Positions 1-64,000 of a stretch of DNA of 64,000 nt are shown piece by piece. Source of the stretch: Escherichia phage ECP2309. Each line of letters opens with the position of its first letter. The stretch's first letter is position 1. The notes beneath the pieces were generated by a model that saw nothing but the letters and a program-made list of their open reading frames with translations, did no database searches and was not told the DNA's origin. The stretch lies in the sequence record PP464953.1; one strand, written 5' to 3'. Made by a program: the position numbers and the translations under genes.

Positions 1-433
1 GGCGGACGAAATGGGAATACTTCTCATTCTTATAACAATTCTCAAATATCAAGGCAGTGAGGCAAATTAATAGGTGAGGCCGTTCACACAGTGGCACAAC
101 ATTTGCAACCTATCTTGTGTGGAGGAATGAGAATACCTATCATTGTGAGAACCATTATCATTACGGGCAATTTAACATAATACCCATTATGCGCACCACT
201 GGCGATACATACAGGGATTGATAACATGAGTTACTGTTTACGCATATAACAATTATATTTCTTACTATTTGTGTGGGATATAGTTAGCAACCAATAGATT
301 AGATATTGACCTGCAGACTTCTGACCGTCCAGACGTCTAAACGCCCACACACCAAGGGTTATACATACATTCCTGAATGTAAACAGGGCCGCAAAAATGC
401 TACCATACCAGTTTGTAAATTTTTCATGCAGCA

Positions 434-550
434 CTTGACAAAGAGGAGAAAAACTTGTCTGACACTTTTGCCACTTTTGACACTTTTACCTTTGACACAA
501 TGTCACACAATATGCCATAATCTGACACCTTATACACTTTCGACACAATA
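434..550. repeat. cluster of TGACAC(TTTT) direct repeats
   Basis: TTGACA/TGACAC copies at ~436, 460, 477, 492, 523, 542 and inverted TGTCAC at ~501; no ORF of 60 aa or more is credible here. Confidence 0.6.
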
Positions 551-585
551 ACGACTGTTATTATTTCATGTTTCATTGTTCACGT

Positions 586-645
586 ATAGACTATTCCCGC
601 ATAGACTGTTTACGCCTGGATAGTTTACACCTTGACAGTTTACAC
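586..645. repeat. tandem ~15-bp direct repeats with core GTTTAC
   Basis: atagactgtttacgcc / tagtttacacc / cagtttacac read directly; further copies near 235, 1047, 1091 and inverted near 379. Confidence 0.6.
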
Positions 646-657
646 AAAGATGATAAG

Positions 658-896
658 CCATGACATTCGTTTGCATGATAACAATTAACAAGTTAATAAT
701 ATATGACATAATATAAAAGCAGGGCAACTATTAGCAGATCTATAGTTGCCTTGCTTGTTATGTCATGATTAACTAAATACAAGGCAACTATGATCTGATT
801 AATAGATTGCAGACAAACTATCACGGGGGTGATTGTTACTGCTTTTATATTATGTCGCGACTCCGTCGCGCCATGCCATTCGTTTGCATAGTTGCC
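658..896. repeat. nested direct/inverted repeat block
   Basis: ccatgNcattcgtttgcat at 658-676 and 871-889; 16-bp inverted repeat gacataatataaaagc (705-720) / gcttttatattatgtc (841-856); GGCAACTAT at 723-731 and 783-791 with inverted ATAGTTGCC at 742-750 and 888-896. Confidence 0.65.
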
Positions 897-1500
897 TTAT
901 TGTTACAGGTAAAACAATTACATTGTTAACTATTTCTTATCTTTCTCTTAGTCATCTAATGATTCCAGTCAGTATAGTTATGTGCAGTAAACATTAGACG
1001 ACTAAAGATTTCTCTGATTATAGTAACCTATCGTGACAATTTAGGACTGTTTACGAAAAATGTTGACACTTGAGCTGATTTATGTTATGCAGTTTACACG
1101 AATAATTATTTTATGCAGGTATTGACTATTCCGTTATTCTGTGGTTGGAATAAATACTTTGCAGGCTATAGAATGATGTGCGTACGTGAATTCTGAGATC
1201 TGGCGGCTATAGTTACACCCGATTTTTCACGTAGGACACGCTTTTGTGGTTGTGTAAGTGTATGACTTATAAGGGTTTTTAATTGTTGACAGTATACTGA
1301 AGATGTGTATCAGGTTAAATTTTGTGCAATAGTTGCATTACGTGCATTTTTGGAAGGAAAAACGTGTAAAAATGGCCCTGCTACCACACAATGAAAGATT
1401 ATGCAATAGTTATTTTCCATGTATATTTGTACAGTATGTGGGATTGATGGCTAGTCAATTATTCCACTTGCCAGGTAGGGCCGTTTATGGTAGGAGAAGA

Positions 1501-1533
1501 GCAGACAAAAAGAAAGGGGCCTTTAAGCCCCTT
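1501..1533 (-). terminator. rho-independent terminator closing the early array
   Basis: stem AAGGGGC/GCCCCTT followed on the minus strand by TCTTTTTGTCT; 20 nt downstream of the stop at 1552. Confidence 0.6.
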
Positions 1534-1551
1534 GATAATTCAGTTAAGAAA

Positions 1552-11306: not shown

Positions 11307-11705
11307 TTATTCGTGGGCGCATGTTACAATGTGCTTTTTATAGCCCAGGCGGTCAGCAAGTGCCGACAAAAACTCTTCTTCGTAGATCCAGCCGTCGGCA
11401 GTGATCCCCATAGCATTTAATGCGCTCTCAAGTGCTGCGTTGGCTTTATCATAACCGTGACCGCTCGCCTTGCCTCCAGTATAGCCGTACTTATTGTTCT
11501 TGTTGTCGTGTATCCAAAAAACGCAGTAGTGAGTGTTCCCGCTGGCGGCGGCATAATACCGGATCTCAGCTACTTCGTGCAAATTATTGTCATCGTCCAG
11601 GCCCACCAGATTATAAGCCTTGTAAAATCCACGATCACGGCGGCAGTTCTTGACATCAGAAAAAGAAAAGTCCGCATTATCAAAATTAAAGGTAGTGGTT
11701 TTCAT
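11307..11705 (-). CDS. hypothetical early protein
   Basis: track ORF 132 aa; SD AAGAGGA. Confidence 0.6.
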   Translation of the reverse strand: MKTTTFNFDNADFSFSDVKNCRRDRGFYKAYNLVGLDDDNNLHEVAEIRYYAAASGNTHYCVFWIHDNKNNKYGYTGGKASGHGYDKANAALESALNAMGITADGWIYEEEFLSALADRLGYKKHIVTCAHE

Positions 11706-11769
11706 GATTTTATCCTCTTAGTGTCTTTTGTGCTTTTAGTGTATTTGGTGTCGGACTGTATGTCAATAC

Positions 11770-11967
11770 TTATTTTTTATTAAACCAGTGGTTGATCTGG
11801 CCTTTTGTCAGGGCGCAACGATTAAGCTGTTGCCGAGTATAGCTCTGACCGCGACGGAATTTATAAAGGCCTTGCCCGTTGTTGATGGTTACATCCACCC
11901 GGCAAACCATTTGATCGGTGACCACCTGGCGAGTGTTGCGACGTACTTTGATTCCGTAGGCGTTCAT
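11770..11967 (-). CDS. small basic protein
   Basis: track ORF 65 aa; SD AGAGAGGA. Confidence 0.5.
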   Translation of the reverse strand: MNAYGIKVRRNTRQVVTDQMVCRVDVTINNGQGLYKFRRGQSYTRQQLNRCALTKGQINHWFNKK

Positions 11968-12020
11968 GATTTTTTATCCTCTCTGTTAATTGGTGTGGTG
12001 TTGTTCACCTTGCGAGGATA

Positions 12021-12049
12021 AGAATAACAATAACTGTACGAGCTGTCAA
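12021..12049 (-). promoter_or_regulatory. sigma70-like promoter TTGACA-N17-TATTCT
   Basis: read on minus strand upstream of ATG at 11967. Confidence 0.5.
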
Positions 12050-12386
12050 CCATTAGTTAGAATTATTTTTTTTGGGCAGAATTCTCCAGCCGCCGCCCCT
12101 ACCAGGTTAACCATCGTTTTTTCGTACTCTTCTTTATGTTCCAACGCTCCCGCCATAGCCTTTTCAACCAGGGCGATAGCCTCAGCGTCATTAATCGCTA
12201 CATTTCCAGGGGATCAAATTACCTTTCATTTTTGTACCTCCTCTTCAATTGTTACCTGCCCTATAGCATAGGCCTACCAGGTTTGCAAGCTTTCACTCTC
12301 TCCTACCTGGTCAGTCAGGTCCTGCCAGGTTGGCCCCGCCAGGTTGCAACGGTTAGCGCATCAGGTTAGAATTTTTTTGAAAAGTG

Positions 12387-12510
12387 TTGACAGCGGCCCC
12401 GCCAGGTGGCACAATATACCTATCGGAAGGACGGCAGGCACCGGTGACGGGGGAGACAACCACCGGGGATGGGCGCTGCATAAAATGAGAACGGTTATCA
12501 TTATCATTTA
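12387..12510 (+). other. structured non-coding unit A (candidate sRNA or regulatory element)
   Basis: starts with TTGACA; contains GGGAGACAACCACCGGGG and ends with near-palindrome GGTTATCATTATCATT. Confidence 0.4.
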
Positions 12511-12530
12511 AAAATTTATGCAAAAAATCC

Positions 12531-12640
12531 TTGCTTTCTTTGTCCTGTGTGATACTATAATAACAAGCCGGGGCAACAGGGGCCGGGAGACAATCACCGG
12601 GGGTGCCCGTTATTCTGCAAACGAGAATGATTATCATTCA
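12531..12640 (+). other. structured non-coding unit B, related to unit A
   Basis: TATAAT at 12556-12561; contains GGGAGACAATCACCGGGGG and near-palindrome AATGATTATCATTC. Confidence 0.4.
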
Positions 12641-12765
12641 AAATTCTAAATGAGAACTTTTCGCATTTCATAAATTTAGTTAGCATGCTAATTACCTACC
12701 GTGACAATTCTATATAAAATAATACCTCCTTAAATATTTCCATATACAAATTTTAAAAATCCATT

Positions 12766-12932
12766 TCCGAAAACGAAAAATCGATTTCGTCCCCAAAAAT
12801 TTCAGGTCGAGCTCCGGAACGATTTCCAGAAAATCTGATTCAGAAAACGAAAAACAGATCGAGTACTAAGAAATTTATCGAGAAAAATTTTCAGAAAATT
12901 CAATCTTTGAAACGAAAAACAGATCGAGTACT
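12766..12932. repeat. iteron-like direct repeats GAAAACGAAAAA(C/T)(A/C)GATCGAGTACT
   Basis: copies at 12769-12790, 12843-12867, 12909-12932 in AT-rich DNA with many shorter repeats. Confidence 0.6.
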
Positions 12933-13243
12933 GAGAGAGATGTATCAAAACCTACTGAGAATAATGGGCTTATTGTTATAAAAGGTCAAAGGTAAGCTGG
13001 GAAAGTTCTGGTAGAAGGGTGAGGGTATGTGCGGAAAATCTGGAATAGTAACTTAAAGTACGGTGCGAACGATAGAATGAGCAGCACATCTTATCGCGCC
13101 TGTCTTGAAAAATCCATTTTAGTTTTCGATCCATTTTCTGATTTTCTAAGAATTTTAAAATATCCGGCCAGGTAAAATATCAAAAGGAGGAAATCCATTT
13201 TAGAAATCCTCCTTATACTTGATGTGCCAGGGATTTTCAAGTA

Positions 13244-13573
13244 TCAACTGTCTTTGTTTTTAGGCTTGTGCATACGTAGAGGTATGGTCTTTATAACATT
13301 CCATCTACCCAACCCCTCCCAGTTCCAATTGTGAGCGTGATACCCGGTTATGCATGCACTGCTGGCGTGATCATAAGCATAAGAGAACGCTATGCGAACC
13401 AAGTGGGGCCAGTCCCTCCACGGCTGTGGACCGTAAGCCTTCCTCCAACACCGACACAAACTAATTGTCTCAAGAATAGGTAGAATAACAAATCCATATA
13501 CCGCCACCAAAATGGTCAGAGCAATGATTGTCAGGAATACATACCCTGCAGTTGAAATAATGATCTCTGTCAT
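13244..13573 (-). CDS. membrane protein
   Basis: track ORF 109 aa; hydrophobic N-terminus; SD AAAGGGGA. Confidence 0.5.
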   Translation of the reverse strand: MTEIIISTAGYVFLTIIALTILVAVYGFVILPILETISLCRCWRKAYGPQPWRDWPHLVRIAFSYAYDHASSACITGYHAHNWNWEGLGRWNVIKTIPLRMHKPKNKDS

Positions 13574-13767
13574 TTGTCATCCCCTTTCTTACGGATATAG
13601 ATGTGAGAGCCTGCTTGTACATAAATTTCCAGACCATCTTCTGCAAAGATGTGGAATACACGGTCGCCTTCGTATTCAATACGGGATATCTTCATAACGG
13701 TCTTCCCACCCGGAATGCGGATCTCATCACCCACAGCAATGTTCCATGCAGATTTAAGCTTAAACAT
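13570..13767 (-). CDS. hypothetical protein
   Basis: track ORF trimmed to ATG (M3) with SD AAAGGAGG. Confidence 0.5.
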   Translation of the reverse strand: MFKLKSAWNIAVGDEIRIPGGKTVMKISRIEYEGDRVFHIFAEDGLEIYVQAGSHIYIRKKGDDK

Positions 13768-14005
13768 CTGCACCCTCCTTTGGGAGCTCTAACTCTGGCA
13801 TAGCCATATACGCCACAACAGGGTTGTAATCAAAGTAGAAATGACCGTTAATTATCCCAGTTTTGTGGGCATAGTCACCAGATCCTGCAAGAACAATCTC
13901 GCAAACTCCGAAATCCACCTTGCCATTCTCATCTGCCATGGCTACAATATACTTTCCTAGAGGCATGTTTTTAACGCCGTCTACAAATGTCCACCCTTTG
14001 TTCAT
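13760..14005 (-). CDS. hypothetical protein
   Basis: track ORF 81 aa; SD AGGAGA. Confidence 0.55.
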   Translation of the reverse strand: MNKGWTFVDGVKNMPLGKYIVAMADENGKVDFGVCEIVLAGSGDYAHKTGIINGHFYFDYNPVVAYMAMPELELPKEGADV

Positions 14006-16781: not shown

Positions 16782-18008
16782 TTAAAAAGGTATGTCATCA
16801 TCAAAGGCGTACTGTGCCGGATTCTGATCCATCGGGTCGTCTTCCGCATCATCTACAGGAGGAGCGTCTACAGTGTTTTGCTGTGGGGCGGCTTCCTGTT
16901 TGGCAGCTTGAGGCTCTTGATGGTCAGTGGCTCCAGCACCGTTCTTGATCCAATCATACAACGGTTCAGCAAGATTAGTCAAGACATCTTTTGCCTCTGC
17001 AGTAATTGCTACTGCAAAATCATCAACTTTCGTTTTCTTGTCAATACGGCGACAAGCGTTCAATACCGCATTACCAACACTGGCACCTACTTCATCTTCA
17101 GTTCGGTTAGTGGCTTGAGCGTACTCTTTCTTAAGCTCGATGGTGACCACGTGCAGTGTTTTAGCCACATCTAAAGGGCTGTCAATCTTAAACCCGCGAT
17201 CCAGGATGATCTGCAATGCATTGATACTGTGCCCTGTCTCTACACCGATGGGGTCGTAAGAGGATTTACGCTTACCACCAGAACCTTGTGTACCGTTCTC
17301 TGCTTTAGGCGGGTAGGCCTTGAAGCCGCTGATAATATTCCCGGTGTCTTTGTCAACAATAGCTGCAACACGACCGCCAACCACCAGGTCTTTAAGCTGC
17401 TCATCAGAGACAACCATAGCACCTTCACCAATCTTGTGATCATTGACAGTAACCACGTTGCCAACAATCTGAGTCACATCACCATAGATGCGTAAAACGT
17501 CCTGATTGGCATTCTGCTGAGGTTTCTGCTTCTGGCCTTGTGATTGTGTGCCTTGTTGCTGTTTTTGTTGCTGTGGAGCTGCTGGAGCCTCTCCTGCCCC
17601 CAACTTAACCATTTTAGCCAGTGAGCCTTTGTAGTAGGTCTTGCCGTTATGCTCGTTTGCCTTCAAAGGGATATTTACGATCCATCCTGGCGTTACGGTT
17701 TCCCACTTGTCGTCAATTTTAACAGAGACGGAGTCTTGATGACCAGGCTTAAGCAGCTTATCACCCATACTGATCCAAACTTCTTCACCACCTTGGAGCA
17801 GGTTATCAGAGGAGTCCAGTTCAGAAATCAGTAAAGAGATGGTGTGGCTGGATTCAATTTTCTTACCTTGCCACACAGTGGTTTTAATACCTGTTGTAGG
17901 ATCAGCACCTTTAATGGGCTTGATGCTGACACGTTTAATCATACCGTGAGCCAGTAAAACAGTTTCACGCGGATTCATCGGGTTGGCAAATTGTTGAATA
18001 ACGCTCAT
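16782..18008 (-). CDS. putative ssDNA-binding protein with SSB-type C-terminal tip
   Basis: ends ...AFDDDIPF, the E. coli SSB C-terminal motif, after a Q/P-rich acidic linker; track ORF trimmed to ATG (M50) with AAGGAG 7 nt upstream, start overlapping the upstream stop (TAATG). Confidence 0.65.
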   Translation of the reverse strand: MSVIQQFANPMNPRETVLLAHGMIKRVSIKPIKGADPTTGIKTTVWQGKKIESSHTISLLISELDSSDNLLQGGEEVWISMGDKLLKPGHQDSVSVKIDDKWETVTPGWIVNIPLKANEHNGKTYYKGSLAKMVKLGAGEAPAAPQQQKQQQGTQSQGQKQKPQQNANQDVLRIYGDVTQIVGNVVTVNDHKIGEGAMVVSDEQLKDLVVGGRVAAIVDKDTGNIISGFKAYPPKAENGTQGSGGKRKSSYDPIGVETGHSINALQIILDRGFKIDSPLDVAKTLHVVTIELKKEYAQATNRTEDEVGASVGNAVLNACRRIDKKTKVDDFAVAITAEAKDVLTNLAEPLYDWIKNGAGATDHQEPQAAKQEAAPQQNTVDAPPVDDAEDDPMDQNPAQYAFDDDIPF

Positions 18009-21211: not shown

Positions 21212-23989
21212 TTAGTGACAATCGCCCCAGTTACGACCGCACAAGTATTCACCTGTGATCTGGAACGGAACGCCCATCATTTTAGAAGCCTGCCAGAAGC
21301 AATGCACCACCATTTCGCCCACAGGGCTCCAGATAAGTTCAAGCTTTCCGTCATCGTTCAAGATAGGATCGTATACCGTATTTCCGTCCTTGTCAACCAT
21401 TTCGTTTCCATCCTCATCTTTGCGTGCCTTTTTGTACTTATGACCGTCGAACACATGAAGTTTAGCCTCCTGCTTGGCCTTAAATGTTTCCAGCTCTTCA
21501 ATTGTGTCGAAGGTGTATACGGTTTTATACTTAGGTGTGTCAGGCACTTGAAGCTGATATTCGTCATGGTAATAAATAATACGACGAACACCTTCATCAT
21601 ACCATCCACGCTTCACCATTTGGTGGTGCATGAGGATTCCGACCAAGTCGCACAACGATGCACCGCCATTTTGCTGATATGCATTAAGCAAAGAGTGTTT
21701 AGAGCGGGTCCAAATGGCATGCCCGTCAAAAGAGTAGATAAATTTCTTACCTGTTGCTTCCCAGAATTTCTCCAGATCCTCTTTACGCCCCTTAAGGCCT
21801 GGGTTGGCATCCCAGAGAGCATCAATTACTCTCTGTCCAAGTTCTGGAGAGATATCTAGCATATCTGCAACTTTATCTTTTTGTGCCCCGTACATAACCC
21901 CATATGTGACAGGCTTACCATCGTTACGAGACACCTCTCTACCTGCTACTTTTGTATATGCCTCAGCATTGTTTTGGTGCGCGTCCCCGTTACTTACAAC
22001 ATCATAATACAGACCGTTGTCAAACTCAAAGGCACCCCAGGCCCCGATGAGCTGCTCTAAGTTGGACCCGTCAATACCGATCTCAAAGTATCCCGGAGGA
22101 ACACCCCACAGACTACGCATCTCTTTACCCATAACCACTTTAGGAGATGGTTTAGGCATGTTTGCACAAATACTATGTTTCTGTCTGGAAGTGTTTGTTA
22201 ATCCAGAACTTTTAGCAGGAAGCTTGTGGTCAATCTTCAAACGTGGATGATTAAGAAGACCAGTATCAACCTTATCTTCCTTGATTGGATCAAGGACCGA
22301 TCTGCGGTTTCGCAATGATAACCACAAAACGATATCTTTAGCCATCTCTCCGTTCAATTTTTCAAGATTCGGGCACAGGTGTCCAAACGTATCTTTCAGT
22401 TGCGGAGAAGTAATAAGCGCTCTGGCTTTTCTACGTATCTTCCCAAACACTTCCTTTTTAATCCTTTCTGAGTTAGGGAAGCTTCGGAACTTATGCACAG
22501 TTGTCTGGAACTTGGCATCAGTTTTGTTCCAGAAGTTGATAATTAGATCACAATACTCTGACTCTAAAAGCTCGTCCATATATGCATATACTCGTGCATC
22601 AACATCTGCATCAGGTAAAGCTTTCTTCTTACTATCCTTAGTTACATCCTTAGTTCTCCACATTGTTGGGAGCCAACCAGCACTGATCAGGTATCGCTTG
22701 ATGTCGTCCTGATTGCTGATTTTCATAGGTATCTTGCAGTCAGGCATTCGCTTCTGCTGTAGGTCACTTATCGCCTGATCCATCAGCTCTTTAGGTAAAG
22801 GGTGTGGTGTAGAAGTTCCTTTGATATACCCCCTCAAGAAATCAGCCATCTTATCGGGGTCTTTACAGCCCATCTCTTCACACCATTTTATCCCCATCTT
22901 ACTTACATCCCCTGTGGAGGTAAATGCTCGCTTAGGAGGGGCTTTAAATTCTAAAGCACTCATGTCTACAGGATAGCCAAGCTTGTCTTTTAACCATTTC
23001 CAACCATTATTGGAGATTGTCCCATCTTGGTTAAACGGCTTTTCAGGGAACTTAGGCCGTTGAGACATTGATAGCTCTTTTAAAGGAAGTTGTGGTTCAA
23101 CACGATCAGCGATCTCTTTCATCCACGCATCGCAGCGGTCACGTAAAGCAATAGCCCCATCTATGTCGAAATACACCCCCTGTCGAGCCTGCAGCTCCAT
23201 CAGGAAGTGCTGTAACATGCCTCGGCGTAATGCGTTCTTCCAGGTGATCTTCTTGAAGCCTTTCGGCTTCTCTTTGGCAGGATCGTACATAAAGTTCTGC
23301 ATGTCAGATTTGCCGTAGAATACACCTTTTGATTCAGCTACCAACTCCTTCCAGAGCAACTCCTGAATGATAACGTCCTCGAACACACGATCCACATACT
23401 TCCACAGCGGAAGCTCACGCCAGTCATCGATTTGAACTTTCTGGTTACCAAGGGCATAGCCCCATGCCATAAGGCCATGAGGCCCAACAGGCTGCATTTT
23501 CTTGGTAACTGGATTGAATACTGCGTCCGGACAACCTTTTGGCAAAGGGCGGTCAGGCCACAAGATTCGACTCATCGCTAACGTATCAAACAGATTAACC
23601 TGGTGGTCGTTGATAGTTCCCATGCATTTAGGATCACGGAACATATCAAAATGAATACCGGATAATCTTTCCATCAGCATAAAGTCGTAACTGTAGCAGT
23701 TATGGCAGTTCAAAGCCGTAGGTGACCAGTCTGAATTGCCTGTAAGCCAGCCTTCCAACTCTGAAAAATCTGCTATGCGAGCCTCAAAATCTGTATAAAG
23801 GGTCTTCTTTGCCAGAATGAAGTTCTTAGCTTTCTCCACATCCTCTTCAGAGTAGTGTGTGCGGTCATTTAGGGGAAGGAACAGCATAAAACGGTTCTTA
23901 TTCAGCTCTTTAAACAAACCGCAGTGATAATAAAGATCTGGGTCTTCCAGCAAGCCAGAGGCCTCAAAATCGAACGACCACATGCTCAT
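21212..23989 (-). CDS. DNA polymerase, family A (Pol I-like) with 3'-5' exonuclease
   Basis: 925 aa; N-terminal FDFEASGL (Exo I-like DxE); motif B-like RNDGKPVTYGVMYGAQ; motif C-like YYHDEYQ. Confidence 0.85.
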   Translation of the reverse strand: MSMWSFDFEASGLLEDPDLYYHCGLFKELNKNRFMLFLPLNDRTHYSEEDVEKAKNFILAKKTLYTDFEARIADFSELEGWLTGNSDWSPTALNCHNCYSYDFMLMERLSGIHFDMFRDPKCMGTINDHQVNLFDTLAMSRILWPDRPLPKGCPDAVFNPVTKKMQPVGPHGLMAWGYALGNQKVQIDDWRELPLWKYVDRVFEDVIIQELLWKELVAESKGVFYGKSDMQNFMYDPAKEKPKGFKKITWKNALRRGMLQHFLMELQARQGVYFDIDGAIALRDRCDAWMKEIADRVEPQLPLKELSMSQRPKFPEKPFNQDGTISNNGWKWLKDKLGYPVDMSALEFKAPPKRAFTSTGDVSKMGIKWCEEMGCKDPDKMADFLRGYIKGTSTPHPLPKELMDQAISDLQQKRMPDCKIPMKISNQDDIKRYLISAGWLPTMWRTKDVTKDSKKKALPDADVDARVYAYMDELLESEYCDLIINFWNKTDAKFQTTVHKFRSFPNSERIKKEVFGKIRRKARALITSPQLKDTFGHLCPNLEKLNGEMAKDIVLWLSLRNRRSVLDPIKEDKVDTGLLNHPRLKIDHKLPAKSSGLTNTSRQKHSICANMPKPSPKVVMGKEMRSLWGVPPGYFEIGIDGSNLEQLIGAWGAFEFDNGLYYDVVSNGDAHQNNAEAYTKVAGREVSRNDGKPVTYGVMYGAQKDKVADMLDISPELGQRVIDALWDANPGLKGRKEDLEKFWEATGKKFIYSFDGHAIWTRSKHSLLNAYQQNGGASLCDLVGILMHHQMVKRGWYDEGVRRIIYYHDEYQLQVPDTPKYKTVYTFDTIEELETFKAKQEAKLHVFDGHKYKKARKDEDGNEMVDKDGNTVYDPILNDDGKLELIWSPVGEMVVHCFWQASKMMGVPFQITGEYLCGRNWGDCH

Positions 23990-24047: not shown

Positions 24048-26126
24048 TTAAAAAGGTGTTTCGTCGTCTTCAAAACCAGGAACGTGGTTAGAGGACGGAT
24101 CATCATACTGAAGATCTTCCTGTGTGTCAACAGGGTTAACAGCAGGAGTTATAACCTTATCAGCCACAACCTTGCCCACAGGTGTTTCTACAACTGCATG
24201 CTCCTGATCCTCAAACATAGCTTGAGGTCTCCAAACAACCTCTCCACCTTCCCCGTCTGTAAACATCTGCATCTCTTTATCCCAATACCAATTGCTGGCA
24301 TCGTGGAACTTGCCTGTGTGGGGATCCATAACTAGGGTGTCCGCAATACCTAAGGTTTTTGCTGGGCGGTTTTTAAGACCTACCAGCCGGACACGTCCAC
24401 GGGAACGATCCACCATCTCCTCTGCCTCTACCCCGACAACCACCCAGCTAAGTTGCTCCAATCCGGCACTACCGCGAAGGTTCTCTTTTCGCACAGGGTA
24501 CCAGAAAGGTAACGGATTTCCATCCTTATCCTTCGGAGGTACAATCTCTGTGCGCTTCAGGTGAGCAATCACCAAGATAAACACATTAAACTGCTTACAG
24601 AACGCGGCTAGTTGAGTCATAGCCATGTCAAGCTCTTTACGCTCATCCTTAACATTAAGCCCTGAAATCACCATAGACAAGTGATCCAGCACAATGTAAC
24701 GGCAGTGATACAGGCACACCATTTGTTTAAGCTTAGTGATCAGCTCATCTACAGGGATGGAGCCGAAATGCTTGAACACTTTGATTTTTCCGGCCTTGGC
24801 CCAAGATTGATGAATCTCAGCGTGCTCCTGATCGGTCAGGAACTGACTGGGGTCTTCAACAAACTCTTTAACATCAAACCCCAGCTGGTTAGCGTACAGA
24901 GAGTTGATTGCTTCCTCAGGATCCTCTTCAAGGTGAATCAGGCACAGGCGATCATCCTCTTCATAATCATCAGCTTTAGGGCATGTTGGGTCCATCAAGT
25001 ATCTTGCAATGCAATGTTCCAGCTTCTTGGCTACAGTTGTTTTACCACCGCCAGACGGGCCTGTCAGCATCATCAAGGTGCCTTTGTGGAGTCCTTTCAG
25101 CATCTTCTGCAGTTTAGGGAACTCTGCACTAATATCCACGCCATTGGAAGTCTTCTTACGAAGAGATTCAATGGAGAAGTCTTCTAAATCAGATACAGCA
25201 TCAGGCACATATTTGACTGGGTGACGGAACATGTTGACAATATCTTCCAGCTTTTTAGCCTTCAGCATGTCACGAATATCTTTTACACCATCAGGGTCGT
25301 TTACCTCACCTGGGTATTCCACGTGGTAAACGTTGTCAGCCATCAAAAATGCTGCGATATTATGCGTAGCTTCAACACCTTTGATAACGTGTTTTTGCTT
25401 CTCTACCTCGTTAGCTGCATCGTTGTCCATTGCAAGGACTACTGTTCCGTAGCTACGGATAAATTTCTCATTGTTCGCAAAAGTGTCTACGGCGTTTGCA
25501 CACCCGCAGTTAATTCCGACAAAAGGCAGGCATGGTTTTCCTGCCAGATCACCGCCGTTGATAACTGCATCAATCCCATCCTGGACTTCTTTAGCCCACT
25601 GCTTCACCTTCGCTGGGGCTTTAGCATTGGTGAGAATACCTTTTACTTGTACCTGATATGCAGCCTGCCACGCTGCAATAACATCTCCTTCCCCCTCACA
25701 AACGTTAATCTGCTTGCGGTTGTTGGAGGATGCACACAGCTTTTGACCAAACATCTGGGAGTTGGCCTTTACTATGCCGACAACCGAGAAATGGCCCCTT
25801 TGCTCTTTAGGGATTGTCCAGTCACGCTTTTTAAAGCCAGATAGATTACCGTAGCGGTCATAATACGGAAAGTAGGTGGCAGTAACAGTTACGCCATCCT
25901 CTTGGGATAGCGATGATCGTACACCAAAATATTGTGCAGCCATCAGTCCAATATTTTGTTGTGGAACAGGGACAATTTTAGTATTTTCTAAAACAGTCTC
26001 TACAGTTTCAACTTCTTTTTCATCACGATAGTCTCGTTTCACACTTCCCCCACTTTTATACTTAGTTGCTTTCGGGTTTGGCTCACCGAAACGGTTGTAT
26101 GCAGATGCCATGAATTTACTGCCCAT
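24048..26126 (-). CDS. DNA primase (TOPRIM) fused to DnaB-like replicative helicase
   Basis: 692 aa; TOPRIM-like CEGEGD and MDNDAANE; Walker A GPSGGGKTT; Walker B-like VLDHL. Confidence 0.8.
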   Translation of the reverse strand: MGSKFMASAYNRFGEPNPKATKYKSGGSVKRDYRDEKEVETVETVLENTKIVPVPQQNIGLMAAQYFGVRSSLSQEDGVTVTATYFPYYDRYGNLSGFKKRDWTIPKEQRGHFSVVGIVKANSQMFGQKLCASSNNRKQINVCEGEGDVIAAWQAAYQVQVKGILTNAKAPAKVKQWAKEVQDGIDAVINGGDLAGKPCLPFVGINCGCANAVDTFANNEKFIRSYGTVVLAMDNDAANEVEKQKHVIKGVEATHNIAAFLMADNVYHVEYPGEVNDPDGVKDIRDMLKAKKLEDIVNMFRHPVKYVPDAVSDLEDFSIESLRKKTSNGVDISAEFPKLQKMLKGLHKGTLMMLTGPSGGGKTTVAKKLEHCIARYLMDPTCPKADDYEEDDRLCLIHLEEDPEEAINSLYANQLGFDVKEFVEDPSQFLTDQEHAEIHQSWAKAGKIKVFKHFGSIPVDELITKLKQMVCLYHCRYIVLDHLSMVISGLNVKDERKELDMAMTQLAAFCKQFNVFILVIAHLKRTEIVPPKDKDGNPLPFWYPVRKENLRGSAGLEQLSWVVVGVEAEEMVDRSRGRVRLVGLKNRPAKTLGIADTLVMDPHTGKFHDASNWYWDKEMQMFTDGEGGEVVWRPQAMFEDQEHAVVETPVGKVVADKVITPAVNPVDTQEDLQYDDPSSNHVPGFEDDETPF

Positions 26127-29614: not shown

Positions 29615-29933
29615 GCTCAAAAAGAATCAAACTGTGCATGCCTGCAGAGAGATCAACACACCCTGCAACAATAAGGGTTTGATAGTAAGGTTCAGCACCC
29701 TCAATATCTTCGTTAAAATCCACAACAAGGTAGTCACCTTTGTTAAAGGTGTATTTGTCCGATGTAAACGCAAAACCTGCCCAGTCACCTACTGCAGGAT
29801 CTTTATCAGTCACCTTTGTTAGCAGTAGATCTTTTTCACGAGATCTTTTAGTAAAATCGTGAATCACAACATCCTTCTCTTCAGGAGTCGGATTGCCACA
29901 CACGTAGTTAACGATATTTCTCCACAAACTCAT
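29592..29933 (-). CDS. hypothetical protein
   Basis: track ORF 113 aa. Confidence 0.55.
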   Translation of the reverse strand: MSLWRNIVNYVCGNPTPEEKDVVIHDFTKRSREKDLLLTKVTDKDPAVGDWAGFAFTSDKYTFNKGDYLVVDFNEDIEGAEPYYQTLIVAGCVDLSAGMHSLILFELDSEDLE

Positions 29934-31300
29934 ACGTCCCCCTTTTCTGCTCTAGTTTCAAAATCTTTCCTGACTTTCTCGTCTAAGCCAGGAAAAGTTG
30001 TATTATAAAACTCTACGACTCTCGGGTCAACAATAATATCCACCTCTCTTAATGGACGCAACAAGTTTATTCCTTGTATCGTCTTAACCCGACTCAAGGC
30101 AACATACGTCATTCCGGGAGAGAAAGCTCCGTTCTTTCCGAGGTCCAGGTTGTAACAATCTAGCGTAAGTCCTTGACTTTTATGTGATGTTACTGCGTAC
30201 CCTGATTTCAAAGGGAGTTGCTCATAAGACCCGATCACAACCCTCTCTATGAACTTCTCCATCTTCCTTTCGGCAATATTGTACCTCTGGGAAGGTTTGT
30301 ACTCGTTATTCTCCCACAATCTCGGCTCAATTTCAACCTGTGCCCCGTCTTCCAGCTCAACTACTACAGATTTGGTCTTGAATTTTACCACTGTGGCGCG
30401 TGTCCCGTTGACATAGTACGGAACTTTGTGGGTAGGGTCAACATCGTTTGAGGTTATCATAACCTTCATCCCTATCTTCAGCCTCATTTCCTGCTCCACA
30501 GGCAGTGTGGAAGGGAACTTACCTTTCATTTTACCAATGTAGGTCTTCTCTGGGGCCTTGATGGCATCATAGAAACGTCTGTTCACCTCCTCTGCTTGCT
30601 TATTGGTGGCACAGATGGTCAAGGCATCTGTTGGGACACCACCATGATAGCAACGAGTGTTAAGCTCTGCTACAACCTCTTTTATGCGACGACCTTCACG
30701 AACACAGTTCAACATTGTGGCGAAGCGAACAGATTCCTGACGGAACTGGTCTACTAAGGCTATATTGTGAAGATTAAGATCCTCCCAAGATTTTGTATAG
30801 CAACACAGATCTGTGTGGTAGAAGTTGAAGTAGGCCTCCTTCTCCATAGAAGAGACAACTGGAGGTGCTTGGTAGAAGTCTCCAAACAATAACACCTGAA
30901 TGCCTCCGAAAGGCTTGTCATTTTTCCGAAGAAAGCGGAGTTTTCTATCCATCTCTATGAACTTGTCAGCACGGATCATGGAGATTTCATCGATAATTAG
31001 GATGGTAAATGCCTTGCTTTTCAGAGGCTTTGCTGTTTTTGCCCTTATTGCTGTCCAGTCTGACTCCATGCTCACACCTGCGGCAAGATCGAAAGTTCGG
31101 TGAGCTGTTGCTCCATTAACGTTTAAAGCGGCTACCCCTGTCGGGGCAACCGTTATGCAAGAGTCTCCATACATGGACTGGATTATGTTGATAAGATATG
31201 TCTTCCCTGTTCCACCAGGTCCACTTACGAAGACATTCTCACCGCTCATGATTGCAACAAGGGCAGCATCTGTGCCTACATCGTACTGCCCTTTTTCCAT
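29930..31300 (-). CDS. Dda/Pif1/RecD-like SF1 DNA helicase
   Basis: 456 aa; Walker A GPGGTGKT; ...VTSHKSQGLTLD near the C-terminus. Confidence 0.85.
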   Translation of the reverse strand: MEKGQYDVGTDAALVAIMSGENVFVSGPGGTGKTYLINIIQSMYGDSCITVAPTGVAALNVNGATAHRTFDLAAGVSMESDWTAIRAKTAKPLKSKAFTILIIDEISMIRADKFIEMDRKLRFLRKNDKPFGGIQVLLFGDFYQAPPVVSSMEKEAYFNFYHTDLCCYTKSWEDLNLHNIALVDQFRQESVRFATMLNCVREGRRIKEVVAELNTRCYHGGVPTDALTICATNKQAEEVNRRFYDAIKAPEKTYIGKMKGKFPSTLPVEQEMRLKIGMKVMITSNDVDPTHKVPYYVNGTRATVVKFKTKSVVVELEDGAQVEIEPRLWENNEYKPSQRYNIAERKMEKFIERVVIGSYEQLPLKSGYAVTSHKSQGLTLDCYNLDLGKNGAFSPGMTYVALSRVKTIQGINLLRPLREVDIIVDPRVVEFYNTTFPGLDEKVRKDFETRAEKGDV

Positions 31301-35434: not shown

Positions 35435-36619
35435 TTAAGCTTTAGCCAAAATGGCGCTAAACTCTTCACCAAACTCTTTTACAATCTTCATCAGGTTTGG
35501 GTATGCTTTGATCAGCTGAGCAACGATCTTGTCACGACCTTTACCGATAAGCAAGGCATTTCCTAAGGCATTAGGTTTCATCATCGCCATAAAGACTGAA
35601 AATACAAAATCTCGGTTCTCGTCCTTGAAGTTTTCCCAAAGGAAATCGAGAAAGTTTGCCACACAGCTAACAAGATCTTCGTCGGAGATACTTGCATTTT
35701 CCATCATATTACGAATAGCGATGCAACCTTCAGATCCAAGAATCCACAAGATGTCTGGCTGTTTAGGACCTACGTATTCTTTGCAACCTCCTGCCATAAT
35801 CCGACCGATTTCCGGTAAGTTGCGTTTCTTGGTGTGGTAAGTCCAGATCTCTACCGCTGCAGTGTGACCAATAGCACCTTGCAGAAGAACACGGGCCATA
35901 GCGTCAGAAATAATACCGCTGTCAAAATCGTGCAAGATATCAGATGCAGCAACCCAAGATCGCGGTGTGGCAAAAGATGGACAATTAATCTCAGCCATGG
36001 CCTCATAATTATCGATAGCTGATGGAACTCTTTTCAGATATCCAATTACAGAGGAGTGCACCCCATTAAGGAATGCGTAGTCCTCAATAAACACCTCTGC
36101 ATTGCTTGTAACCTCTACAATGATAAAACGGTTAGCCAGAGGGGCTTCGAGCGCCGAAAGAACCGCACCATCTGTAGAACGGTTACCAGCAGCCACAAAA
36201 ACAGACCCCTTAGGGAATGCATAAGTACCGCACTTGTGGTCAAGCATAATTTGCATTGCAACCTTTTGTAGGTAGTTATCTGCATGAGTGAGCTCATCCA
36301 GAAAGATAATTCCGCTCCAGTCAGGATCCGCAGGCCAAAATTCTGGAATTGCAAACACTGTACGTGTAGTTCCATCCGCTTCTACAGGGATAGGTAGCCC
36401 AGATAAGTCGGCAGGATCTTTATCTGACAGCCGCACGTCAACAAGGTTGTCATCTCGCTCACCGAACATATTATCAGCGATCTGCTTCATCACCTGGCTT
36501 TTACCTACACCCATTGGTCCCAAAATTAGGACAGATCGGCTATGACGTTGGGCAAACTGAATAATAGCTGGCAACTCACGGACAGTGATTTGACCACTTT
36601 CGAATACGTTTCTTGACAT
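35435..36619 (-). CDS. MoxR-type AAA+ ATPase (CobS-like)
   Basis: 394 aa; Walker A GPMGVGKS; Walker B IIFLDELTHAD. Confidence 0.75.
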   Translation of the reverse strand: MSRNVFESGQITVRELPAIIQFAQRHSRSVLILGPMGVGKSQVMKQIADNMFGERDDNLVDVRLSDKDPADLSGLPIPVEADGTTRTVFAIPEFWPADPDWSGIIFLDELTHADNYLQKVAMQIMLDHKCGTYAFPKGSVFVAAGNRSTDGAVLSALEAPLANRFIIVEVTSNAEVFIEDYAFLNGVHSSVIGYLKRVPSAIDNYEAMAEINCPSFATPRSWVAASDILHDFDSGIISDAMARVLLQGAIGHTAAVEIWTYHTKKRNLPEIGRIMAGGCKEYVGPKQPDILWILGSEGCIAIRNMMENASISDEDLVSCVANFLDFLWENFKDENRDFVFSVFMAMMKPNALGNALLIGKGRDKIVAQLIKAYPNLMKIVKEFGEEFSAILAKA

Positions 36620-61182: not shown

Positions 61183-64000
61183 TTAGTCGTGAGACTCGTT
61201 CCAAGGTCCTTGGAAACTAGAGTTAGAACGGCTTACCACAACAGTAGGACAGGATATTGCGACCCCTGTTACAGAAGACGTTGACCATGGTGTGTAGATT
61301 TCAACAACAATATCTATGGTTTGTTCACCAAGACCCGTTATCCCTACTGCACACATACCGTTGTTGTCGTTTCCGTACTTCTTACCTGCAAGGATTTGAT
61401 GTCCGGCTATCCAAACGTTAAGCTGGGAGCCAGACAAGGTTCCGTTTAGTTTAAAGAAGAATGTTACGTTCTTACCTTGTCCTGAAACGTTGTCCACATA
61501 TCTCCACCTCCAACGGCAAACCCTCTGCTGTGAGTTATATACTGGAGGACAGTCACCGTAGGTTCTGTGTGCAACTATTGCACCTTCGAACTGGTTAGCA
61601 CGGATAACAGAAGCTTCTACACGCCCACGAAAGGTACCTCCGGTTGCATCTATGGTGCCCCTAAAGCTACCATTATTGGCATAAACATCCCCACGGAAGG
61701 TACCACTAGTGGCGTTAACTGCCCCTGTGAAGTTACCAGAACTGGCGTTGATGTTGCCTTTCACCCACACATCCATAAATTGGGCGTGCCCGTTCTTGTT
61801 AATATACCAACCGTATTTATGGTACCCGTTGCCATCGTAGTTGTTTGACGAAATTTCTTGTGCGATCTTGGCAGATGAAATCGTCCCGTTCTCTATAAAA
61901 GCATCTTTCAAGAACGCTTGGTTGTTCTTGATTGCGAAAGCAAGGGTTGCTGTTCCATTTCCAGGGTTGTATACCGCAAAATTGTTTGCACTAACCATGA
62001 AGTAGGATTGAACTTGGCCTCCAGACCCTTCCATCCCCAACTGGATACCTGCAACATATTTATTCCCTGCGGAGTCTACCTGTATTTTTGTGCCCCATTG
62101 AGCATTTACTTTACCCTCTAAGTCGGTTACAGCCTTAGATGTTGTAGCTACTGCAGCCCTGATCTCGGACACATCCCCAACATCATCAATGATCTCCTGC
62201 TTAGCAACAGCAAGTTCTTGACGAATAGCTGACGCTGTGCCGTTGATAAGGTCCACAGTAGCTTTGTTGGTATCGGAAATTGTAGCATCCAGCGCTGTTT
62301 TTGTGGAAGTCAGTTTTCCATCCAAAGCATCAATCGCCTGCTTGTTGGTAGAAATCTCCCCACGTGCAGAAGTTATCTGCTCTGACAGTGCAGATGTTTT
62401 CTGATTCAACAAGTCAGTGGTGGCCTTGTTGGTATTGGCAATCAAGGTGTTGAGGTCAGTTTTTGCGGTGGTTATCTTGCCATCCAGGGTGGTATAGTTT
62501 TTAGATACCGTCGCGTTTGTCTGACTGATCTTTTGATCCAGAGTTTCAGATGTCCTGTTCAAAAGATCCACAGTTGCCTGGTTAGTGCTCAAGATGCTTG
62601 CGTCAAGTTCTGTTCTCTGAGTATTGATCTTACCATCCAGAGTTTTATCTCCGGCTAAATACCCGCTCTCAACTCCCTCTATCTGCTCTACCAGCTCACC
62701 TTTGGCGGCAACCAATTTCTCATCTAAAGCCTCTGTCTTTTTGTTCAGAAGATCAGTAGTTGCTTTATTGGTTGTCTCGATCAGAGATGCCAGTCTGCCA
62801 CTTTCAGTGTTCAGATCGTTGGTGAATTTGTTCTGTGCAGCAACAAGTTTCCTATCCAGCGCTGTAATGTTACCATTGACATCTTCAAACTTCTGAGTTG
62901 TTTCTGTAACTACCGCACCTATTCTGTCCCCAAGTTGTTGGAACGCTTCATCTACCCTACCATCCATGTACCTGTTAAGTTCTGTGACACGATTTTCAAC
63001 CTCTTCAATAGAGGAATCCAAAGTGCTCATCAACTCTTTATAAGTTTCTGTCTTTTTGAATTCAGCATCTATCTGAGGCATCAAATCCTCAATAGAGGTA
63101 TAGCAGCGTGCAGCGCATTCTACAAACTGAGAGCTACCAAAAGCGTTTGTGGTTCGAATATACCAATAATAAACCTTATCGTTCTGCAGACCTTCAGATG
63201 TCCAAGTCGAACCAACACCCATACGGGTGGCTTCTGAAGTAACGGTTGCATCACTAGTGTCTGGCAACCTTGTCATACCAGATGTCCAAAAGTCATACTG
63301 GGTGCTTACACTTGCTAAATCCCTGCTGTGTGGAATCAAGGTGATAGCAAAGTATCCTTGCTTAACCTCTACAGAAACAGGAGCTTCAGGTGCCTGAATG
63401 TTAAACTCGCAGTACGCTTCTGGAGATACACCACCTTTATAAGATGTTGCAACCACGGTTGCTGTGTATGACCCTTTGGTCAAGCCTTCTACTCTGACAA
63501 ACTGCTCAACTGTCTGTGCTGTCCAAACAATCTCTCCGTTCTTTCTTACCTGCACAATATTTTGAGCGTAAGTTCCAACGTTGTCCCAAGCCAAAACACC
63601 GTGAGTTACTTCCCCAGCTTGGAGAACGGAGTATCTGAAGTTTTGCGGTTGAGCTACACCGGATGGGGATATCGGAATATCTACATCGCCGGAATCCGGA
63701 AGTTGCCCTGTGGCATCATTCCACTCTTTAGCATCTTGACGAAGTTTTACCTTGACACCGCCCTTTTTGGTGAACTCCCATTCAAGAACCCTCATTTCTT
63801 GGCCCACTATACCAATACTTGGGAGATTCATTGTAACGTAACGGCCAGGTTTAAATTTAAAACCTCGCATATTGCAGGTGACTTCAATAATCCTGCCAGC
63901 TCTAGCACGTCTTAAAAATATTGCAGAAACACGCTGAGCTTGATAAGGGCTGGTAACAAAGCGGTAGTCTATATCGATTATCTTTCTTTCTCCATCCTTC
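61183..64000 (-). CDS. tail fibre-like coiled-coil protein, 5' end outside window
   Basis: track ORF starts at 63870 but the frame stays open to position 64000, so the true start is beyond the window; ~35-aa tandem repeats (TNKATTDLLN-type). Confidence 0.65.
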   Translation of the reverse strand, partial: KDGERKIIDIDYRFVTSPYQAQRVSAIFLRRARAGRIIEVTCNMRGFKFKPGRYVTMNLPSIGIVGQEMRVLEWEFTKKGGVKVKLRQDAKEWNDATGQLPDSGDVDIPISPSGVAQPQNFRYSVLQAGEVTHGVLAWDNVGTYAQNIVQVRKNGEIVWTAQTVEQFVRVEGLTKGSYTATVVATSYKGGVSPEAYCEFNIQAPEAPVSVEVKQGYFAITLIPHSRDLASVSTQYDFWTSGMTRLPDTSDATVTSEATRMGVGSTWTSEGLQNDKVYYWYIRTTNAFGSSQFVECAARCYTSIEDLMPQIDAEFKKTETYKELMSTLDSSIEEVENRVTELNRYMDGRVDEAFQQLGDRIGAVVTETTQKFEDVNGNITALDRKLVAAQNKFTNDLNTESGRLASLIETTNKATTDLLNKKTEALDEKLVAAKGELVEQIEGVESGYLAGDKTLDGKINTQRTELDASILSTNQATVDLLNRTSETLDQKISQTNATVSKNYTTLDGKITTAKTDLNTLIANTNKATTDLLNQKTSALSEQITSARGEISTNKQAIDALDGKLTSTKTALDATISDTNKATVDLINGTASAIRQELAVAKQEIIDDVGDVSEIRAAVATTSKAVTDLEGKVNAQWGTKIQVDSAGNKYVAGIQLGMEGSGGQVQSYFMVSANNFAVYNPGNGTATLAFAIKNNQAFLKDAFIENGTISSAKIAQEISSNNYDGNGYHKYGWYINKNGHAQFMDVWVKGNINASSGNFTGAVNATSGTFRGDVYANNGSFRGTIDATGGTFRGRVEASVIRANQFEGAIVAHRTYGDCPPVYNSQQRVCRWRWRYVDNVSGQGKNVTFFFKLNGTLSGSQLNVWIAGHQILAGKKYGNDNNGMCAVGITGLGEQTIDIVVEIYTPWSTSSVTGVAISCPTVVVSRSNSSFQGPWNESHD

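Follow-up and report, generated by a model that had tools for sequence, protein, structure and literature searches.

Background

In iteron origins of replication, such as lambda ori, P1 oriR and those of plasmids, the sites are directly repeated, roughly 17-22 bp long and either contiguous or about two helical turns apart. Transcription-activated origins are built around promoters: the T7 primary origin has promoters phi1.1A and B with an AT-rich region after them, and in T4 oriF and oriG a promoter is followed by an unwinding element forming an R-loop primer. An iteron origin of the RepA_N type was described in PLE, the satellite of phage ICP1 (PMC7145576). For phage rV5, the origin was sought by skew analysis in the genome paper and could not be placed (PMC3606486). 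We analysed a 64,000-nt window from Escherichia phage ECP2309 (PP464953.1; unless stated otherwise, all positions are those of this window). It contains a gene-free control module of about 900 bases (about 12340-13215), common to several genera of large phages that infect E. coli, Klebsiella and Salmonella, in which three direct-repeat units adjoin AT-rich DNA. This module is the best candidate so far for the replication origin of these phages.

An initial annotation had recognised in the repeats the classic organisation of an iteron origin. Part of this claim stood, as the repeats are unique in the genome, recur across genera and adjoin an AT-rich, unwinding-prone segment, as in lambda ori, P1 oriR and plasmid origins. 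Furthermore, partial inverted sub-repeats flank an A-rich centre in the units, much like those of RepA_N iterons, and another subfamily bears other repeats at the equivalent position. The organisation itself is not classic. Unlike contiguous sites of about 20 bp, the units are 38 nt or longer, start 63-78 nt apart and occur in two to three copies (two intact ones in this phage), there is neither a nearby Rep or initiator gene nor a DnaA box, and the third-position skew differs from that of bacterial origins. Because site size, spacing, the adjacent Rep gene and the DnaA boxes all fail, the module was not filed as a classic iteron origin. The initial annotation covered just the right-hand third of the module; the remainder, with its plus-strand promoters, conserved element and Fur-like palindromes, leaves regulatory and RNA explanations open.

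The likeness to the T7 primary origin and to T4 oriF and oriG concerns other features. Predicted promoters would direct transcription into AT-rich DNA of unusually low stability, a gene for a dedicated initiator is not evident, and, as in T7, the replisome combines a family-A polymerase with a gp4-like primase-helicase. Unlike those of T7 and T4, the predicted promoters of the module are of the host sigma-70 type, and three long repeats resembling protein sites as well as Fur-like palindromes are added. No description of it was found in the literature searched, and we consider it a new form of known kinds of cis-acting phage elements.

Results and discussion

The repeat array

Units 2 and 3 are near-identical, with 38 nt each, and unit 1 shares their left and middle parts; the array is made of two intact units and a degenerate one (Table 1). 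The strings quoted in the initial annotation were all present as stated, the principal ones at 12769-12790 (GAAAACGAAAAATCGATTTCGT), 12843-12867 (GAAAACGAAAAACAGATCGAGTACT) and 12909-12932 (GAAACGAAAAACAGATCGAGTACT), and the recurrence at intervals of about 70 bp corresponded to start-to-start spacings of 74 and 65 nt. This recurrence was non-random. A 25-mer search gave two occurrences in the window at up to two mismatches and zero in 100 dinucleotide shuffles, exact matches of the 12-mer GAAAACGAAAAA were confined to the array, and the unit was found at no other place in the complete 136.4-kb genome, put together from the window and a database record. A shorter repeat, AAATCCATTT, occurred three times in the window (12757, 13110 and 13191), against 0.36 expected.

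The AT-rich surroundings were likewise confirmed. In a nearest-neighbour stability scan, the least stable 60-nt (12706-12765) and 100-nt (12665-12764) stretches of the whole window adjoined unit 1 on its left, and the AT-rich cluster beyond the array (13103-13165) also ranked high in instability. An AT-rich candidate unwinding element next to the array, as iteron origins require, is present.

Table 1. Location of the features of the gene-free module and of replication genes in the window of phage ECP2309
Feature	Position	Strand	Sequence	Basis or remark
Promoter P0, sigma-70-type	12344-12372	+	TTGCAA-17-TAGAAT	Promoter scan
Promoter P1	12387-12415	+	TTGACA-17-CACAAT with TG extension	Promoter scan
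Conserved element, copy 1	12451-12471	+	GGGAGACAACCACCGGGGATG	Downstream of P1; repeat family; 0.90 identity within genus
Palindromic 19-mer box 1, Fur-box-like	12484-12502		AATGAGAACGGTTATCATT	15/19 to Fur consensus; among the five best of the genome
Promoter P2	12531-12561	+	TTGCTT, 16-nt spacer, TGaTACTAT / TATAAT (extended -10)	Read from sequence
Conserved element, copy 2	12585-12609	+	GGGAGACAATCACCGGGGGTGCCCG	Anchor common to other genera
Palindromic 19-mer boxes 2 and 3	12620-12638, 12649-12667		AACGAGAATGATTATCATT and AATGAGAACTTTTCGCATT	29 nt apart
Candidate unwinding element	12665-12765			Nearest-neighbour stability scan
Repeat unit 1, degenerate	12756-12793	+	AAAATCC..GAAAACGAAAAA kept; ATCGATTTCGTCCC replaces GATCGAG core	
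Repeat unit 2	12830-12867	+	AAAATCTGATTCAGAAAACGAAAAACAGATCGAGTACT	Repeat families, 25-mer search
Repeat unit 3	12895-12932	+	AAAATTCAATCTTTGAAACGAAAAACAGATCGAGTACT	A5T4 tract ahead, at 12883-12891
Spacer, poorly conserved	12935-13100			Phylogenetic footprint, identity 0.57-0.83
Second AT-rich conserved cluster, low-stability	13103-13165		Short repeats AAATCCATTT, GATCCATTTT, TTTTCT	
Putative minus-strand terminator	13171-13214	-	8-bp stem AAGGAGGA/TCCTCCTT, 15-nt loop, then TTGATATTTT	
DNA polymerase (family A)	21212-23989			PHROG match
Primase/helicase, gp4-like	24048-26126			PHROG match
Dda-like helicase	29930-31300			Same minus-strand block as polymerase and primase-helicase

Conservation of the module among related phages

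A 1.6-kb query (window 12000-13600) was 100% identical to ECP2303 (PP261279.1), a Vequintavirus, and matched more than 100 rV5-like phages at 85-98% identity; the source of the window is a Vequintavirus, an rV5-like E. coli myovirus. The full genome has 136,404 nt, against 136,403 in PP261279.1, a net insertion of 1 nt that lies beyond 13600 (the overlap with L032 starts at window position 63460, not 63459). Within Vequintavirus, the segment 12380-12935 was conserved above adjacent coding DNA, with peaks at P2, the element, the box and the units. Unit 2 was nearly invariant in the 13 Vequintavirus copies scanned (identity per bin 0.94-1.00) and unit 1 reached 0.95-0.99, and the spacer of about 170 nt that follows unit 3 was free to vary.

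Between genera, blastn of the gap matched about 100 nt, comprising P2, the element CACCGGGGGTGCCCG and one palindromic box; the matches were to Mydovirus, Certrevirus, 4MG-like and other phages. The second copy of the element, unique in the genome, and its adjacent box were the sole part of the gap found in this way. These loci were read, and viral contigs were scanned with element and repeat-core patterns, which did better than anchoring on the flanking gene (two loci only); flanking protein genes were mostly undetected between genera by tblastn. Homologous three-unit arrays were found in at least five lineages, namely Vequintavirus, Mydovirus, 4MG-like phages, Certrevirus and a fifth lineage. 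All share one layout: a plus-strand promoter, the element, two to four palindromic 19-mers at 29-nt spacing and three direct-repeat units. Outside Vequintavirus, the unit consensus consists of AATACG, a 17-nt spacer (GA..GAAAA) and CGATCGAGA(A/C)CC, and unit 3 of phage 4MG (GAAAACGAAAAAGTGATCGAGTACC) is almost identical to the right half of unit 2 of the window.

The geometry of the array was conserved as well. The distance from TACG to GATCGAG is 23 nt in every case, and unit 1 lies 182-194 nt past the conserved element, with the exception of locus L015 (+155). Units 1 and 3 are separated by 138-143 nt in all lineages, the middle unit moving by at most 11 nt, and unit starts are 63-78 nt apart in the other genera. 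The array was flanked by two low-stability zones at most of the ten loci scanned. Other lineages also have such a zone at +17 to +125 relative to the element, and an equivalent of the cluster at 13103-13165 is present in every lineage at +510 to +555.

Repeats of this kind might be a functionless remnant of local tandem duplication within an AT-rich spacer. Several duplication-like families indeed occur in the region, among them a 136-nt repeat in which promoter, element and box are duplicated. However, copy number and geometry of the array were kept in genera whose flanking DNA and genes no longer align, and within the genus the units were conserved above coding DNA while adjacent spacers varied. 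These conservation data effectively refute an explanation that we find hardly credible.

A different situation was encountered in the phAPEC8-like phage ukendt (Stephanstirmvirinae), whose equivalent gene-free gap has kept the left half of the module: promoters, a conserved leader of about 100 nt and TTGTAAAGAnnnGTAAAGA, together with P2, a variant of the element and four boxes spaced 29 nt apart. Where the GATCGAG units would stand (L156 2715-2930), another direct-repeat family (AAACTTTAAAT..., TTTTGTA...) lies in extremely AT-rich DNA. Such a combination, in which the control half is conserved and the repeats differ between lineages, would be expected of repeats co-evolving with a binding protein particular to each lineage, in the way that origins and initiators do.

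No copy of the module was found in complete E. coli genomes, and a 16-base unit pattern gave scattered, chance-like single matches in bacterial genome contigs (about 280 expected by our own estimate). The single plasmid match, PLSDB entry CP057073.1 (137,565 bp), is listed as non-mobilisable and comes from E. coli of cattle faeces; it matched at 93.5% (17161-17713) and is presumably a whole Vequintavirus genome.

Repeat units as probable DNA sites

RNAalifold predicted zero pairs on an alignment of 22 distinct units. One dyad was noticed by eye (TCTCGAT...ATCGAGA); its 3' arm is invariant and its 5' arm varies freely, with 29% unpaired cells and no compensatory changes. Covariation was also looked for in the element after P2, where none was found, and no Rfam family matched the locus in any lineage. 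A hairpin or structured RNA was rejected for the units and for the post-P2 element on account of this absence of covariation. Neither did the array resemble a structured or tandem-repeat RNA of the ToxI type, as unit spacing is variable and covariation is lacking. The pseudo-ToxI of phiTE was discarded too; it belongs to a different locus, near the terminase and tRNAs. A tRNA remnant was rejected, since ARAGORN found no tRNA at any locus and Rfam gave no match. The tRNA-Lys, tRNA-Ile and tRNA-Met annotations of the Mydovirus Klebsiella phage OY978796.1 (L003 1878-2573) could not be reproduced by either program; one of these annotations covers the conserved element and a box.

The invariant core of the units contains a GATC palindrome, extended to CGATCG in most units outside Vequintavirus. 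Because the conserved blocks lie at a fixed distance, the invariant core contains GATC and hairpin covariation is absent, the units look like sites at which a sequence-specific protein would bind double-stranded DNA.

Promoters, palindromes and leader

The promoter scan of the region gave 13 sites where 4.7 were expected. P0, P1 and P2 all point rightwards, opposed to all neighbouring minus-strand genes. The spacers of P0 and P1 are GC-rich (GCCCCGCCAGGT motif), with identities of 0.8-0.9 within the genus. P2, missed by the consensus scan because its -35 hexamer has 3/6 matches only, is the most conserved promoter of the module (0.93-0.98 within the genus) and has a counterpart in every lineage examined. 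Mydovirus and 4MG possess an additional promoter just ahead of unit 1. The unstable segment starts about 100 nt downstream of P2, and P1 and P2 are thus predicted to be promoters directed into a downstream unwinding element.

The palindromic 19-mers follow the pattern AATGAGAAT-N-ATT(A/C)TCATT, with further copies at 10-44 and 126-160. Compared with the 19-bp Fur consensus (GATAATGATAATCATTATC), they scored 15/19 at 12487 and 12623 and 16/19 in 4MG, where one copy (TGATAATGATTATCA) exactly matches what we take to be the 7-1-7 Fur motif. Sites with at least 14/19 matches numbered 14, against 5.8 in shuffled sequence. Copies of the pattern were almost restricted to the two gene-free regions of the genome, with a few weaker matches elsewhere, and this was also observed in the 13-kb segment of phage KPP-1 examined. 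The 29-nt spacing, with two to four copies, recurs in other genera. The close consensus match suggests Fur boxes, and a phage protein of similar specificity would be equally possible. Although the boxes beside the array match the Fur box as those of Fur-regulated promoters do (the repeats themselves do not enter this comparison), most of them lie downstream of the promoters, not over them.

In other genera, the first promoter precedes a small open reading frame (ORF), which is followed by a leader of about 100 nt with a predicted fold, one compensatory pair and no Rfam match. By eye, this plus-strand stretch (...GACGCCACCCCACGGCGAAAAGGCGGGGCTAACGTACCGGGC...GGAAGGTGGATCGCCGG...) is roughly 85-95% identical across genera, and it also occurs in the second subfamily (L003 2300-2400; L021 ~360-460; L016; L014; L156 2375-2470). 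It is a candidate for a new non-coding RNA. The P1 leader of the window (12416-12480) is its diverged counterpart.

On its left, the module is bordered by a small gene that differs between lineages. Mydovirus and 4MG encode a plus-strand 61-amino-acid DUF7170 protein, and in Certrevirus-3, the fifth lineage and phAPEC8-like phages the ORF has a helix-turn-helix-like sequence (MTNTE.LMKALGWQGGTVHQVA..TG.TV.QVLDL); the corresponding loci are L003 2073-2255, L021 231-28, L016 1084-1284 and L156 2075-2341. Both are absent from the genome of the window.

These features allow another reading, in which the gap would be a small rightward transcription unit with a regulatory switch, giving rise to one or several plus-strand non-coding RNAs and containing no origin. 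Palindromes and units would then be operators for a host or phage regulator, Fur for example, or protein-binding RNA motifs, and the unit would control early gene expression or insulate two minus-strand gene blocks. In agreement with this, conservation within the gap is highest at the plus-strand promoters, the first promoter of other genera would drive a small ORF and the folded leader, the palindromes come close to the Fur consensus with good copies almost confined to the two gene-free regions, and the locus divides gene blocks that differ in third-position skew and conservation. However, a downstream gene that the array could regulate is absent, neither the units nor the post-P2 element show covariation or an Rfam match, and the GATC/CGATCG core with its fixed block spacing is easier to reconcile with a protein recognising double-stranded DNA than with one recognising RNA. 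Conservation is moreover lacking in the 170 nt past unit 3, and a plus-strand terminator was not found. On balance, we regard such a regulatory unit as the main alternative to an origin, possible but somewhat less likely.

Genome context

Minus-strand genes run unbroken across 1.5-39 kb of the window, in a block within which about 1 kb of DNA without genes (roughly 12230-13240) encloses the repeats. The upstream part of the block is probably terminated by the hairpin and T-run read from 13214 to 13171, which the terminator scan had left out because its loop exceeds 8 nt, and a promoter annotated in rV5 as P195B (about 12049-12021 in the window) restarts the block. The "hypothetical proteins" annotated within the gap probably do not correspond to genes. 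In a minus-strand ORF of 35 amino acids (13091-13198), what looks like a ribosome-binding site is the stem of the putative terminator hairpin, and in other records the counterparts of ORF 12353-12637 overlie the conserved promoters, element and boxes.

The third-codon-position GC skew of the coding strand (window 1500-39300) shifts from -0.10 on the left of the locus to +0.03 on the right (p = 0.003), gene orientation being constant across the change. In our view, two classes of genes meet here, and the shift gives no support to an origin. The genes of the left block (1.5-12.2 kb) are small and poorly conserved between genera. At its end, on the minus strand (12046-12228), the homologue of a Vequintavirus gene of 58-60 amino acids appears frameshifted: its ATG at 12226 is followed by a stop 12 codons later, and only a piece of 36 amino acids (12046-12156) is annotated. 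The C-terminal part of the Vequintavirus protein matches phrog_21957.

The module as a candidate replication origin

An origin is a reasonable and preferred reading of the locus, because the repeats are non-random, unique, shared across genera and located beside unstable DNA in a gene-free island, and because the origin of this phage group was never located. We tentatively interpret the whole module as a composite, gene-free, cis-acting vegetative origin of rV5-like phages and their relatives. If so, it would be of a mixed type combining transcription, repeats and an unwinding element, which is likewise a tentative assignment. The replisome is T7-like, and the polymerase and primase-helicase of T7 type that transcription-activated origins require are present. 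Origin activity, as well as protein binding and transcription at the module, is what we infer from these arrangements.

Under this hypothesis, host RNA polymerase would start at P1 and P2, perhaps gated by a protein on the Fur-like palindromes. Rightward transcription would then enter the most meltable DNA of the window (12665-12765) and cross the protein-bound, A-tract-rich array. Transcription and nucleoprotein complex together may open the duplex or leave an RNA-DNA hybrid, on which the T7-type replisome (family-A polymerase and gp4-like primase-helicase) would load and begin DNA synthesis, in the manner of the primary origin of T7 or of oriF and oriG in T4.

Several observations weigh against an origin. 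DnaA boxes (TTWTNCACA) are absent from window 11,500-14,000, GATC is not enriched in Vequintavirus, and neither the neighbourhood nor the replication block yielded an initiator-like protein; an initiator may lie farther off in the genome. For the small flanking proteins, neither family nor DNA-binding matches were obtained, and an annotated "transcriptional regulator" is also without a family match. An AAA+ ATPase (35435-36619, minus strand, near rIIA/rIIB) was considered as initiator and rejected, as its homologues are of the MoxR type (PF07726, PF07728). The wide unit spacing, unlike that of canonical iterons, and the mere two intact units in this phage point in the same direction, and the skew shift at the locus has the opposite sign to that of a bacterial bidirectional origin. 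The repeat replacement in ukendt fits a lineage-specific regulator equally well, as the conserved plus-strand promoters and the leader fit a non-coding RNA or regulatory unit. The repeat-rich second gene-free region described below is an alternative candidate for the origin. Transcriptome or replication mapping for Vequintavirus was not found in the literature searched.

A wider proposal can be made, which we think unlikely in its entirety. Two subfamilies of large enterobacterial myoviruses, Vequintavirinae and phAPEC8-like Stephanstirmvirinae, would have in common a hitherto undescribed origin type in which host transcription, gated by Fur (and so by iron) at the palindromes, primes a T7-type replisome at an unwinding element, organised by a nucleoprotein complex of about 140 bp in which an initiator binds three long lineage-specific repeats.

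Second gene-free region, genome ends and DNA entry

A second, larger gene-free region covers window 1-1550 and about 1.4 kb before it (L033 22484-23904), at the junction of convergent gene blocks. It contains seven copies of TGACAC (437-550), AGTTTACAC, inverted GGCAACTAT/ATAGTTGCC pairs (721-900), two copies of CATTCGTTTGCAT and four more palindromic boxes. In the Mydovirus KPP-1, a terminal repeat of 514 bp was mapped with PhageTerm at 116,316-116,829 (PMC9862379), within the counterpart of this region. The second region is a candidate for a genome-end or packaging region.

The pac site of P1 features GATC-containing repeats. The units of the array recall this site, several adenine methyltransferase genes are encoded in the phage genome, and the relative phiTE is a generalised transducer (PMC3475682), all of which might designate the array as a packaging (pac) or terminase recognition site or as a genome terminus. 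However, the KPP-1 array is located at about 125,300, 8.5 kb from the terminal repeat, the terminase gene is about 78 kb away from the array, and GenBank records do not consistently start at the locus. Because KPP-1 has its mapped ends in the second gene-free region, we largely rejected the array as a terminus or pac site, and such a role appears very improbable.

The position of the array relative to genome ends raises a further possibility, namely a boundary of DNA entry similar to the injection stop signal (iss) of T5, set at a constant distance from the genome end, at which transfer would pause after the first host-takeover genes have entered. In KPP-1, about 8.5 kb (6% of the genome) separate the array from the mapped terminal repeat, and the genes between end and array are small and, in the relatives of the window, poorly conserved orphans. 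The T5 region is untranslated and repeat-rich, with 66-bp direct repeats, and is conserved above neighbouring ORFs (bioRxiv 10.1101/866236); the module is likewise untranslated, repeat-rich, conserved above its neighbouring ORFs and, in KPP-1, close to a genome end. Unlike the T5 signal, it has no paired DnaA boxes and lies outside the terminal repeat. Moreover, Vequintaviruses were reported to be circularly permuted or headful-packaged, hence without a fixed end (PMC8407724, PMC13211470), and two-step injection was never reported for this phage group. Such a role for the module seems improbable.

Conclusion

Phages related to rV5 are widely isolated and are candidates for biocontrol and therapy. 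The locus described here offers a sharply bounded, testable origin candidate of about 900 bp, whose geometry is fixed across genera that share little else in this region. Should it prove to be an origin, origin-based engineering and satellite or plasmid amplification assays would become possible, and it would add to the known origins a new case in which transcription and repeats together serve a T7-type replisome. Should it be a regulatory or RNA unit, it would represent a conserved early control hub of these phages, which may be linked to iron sensing.

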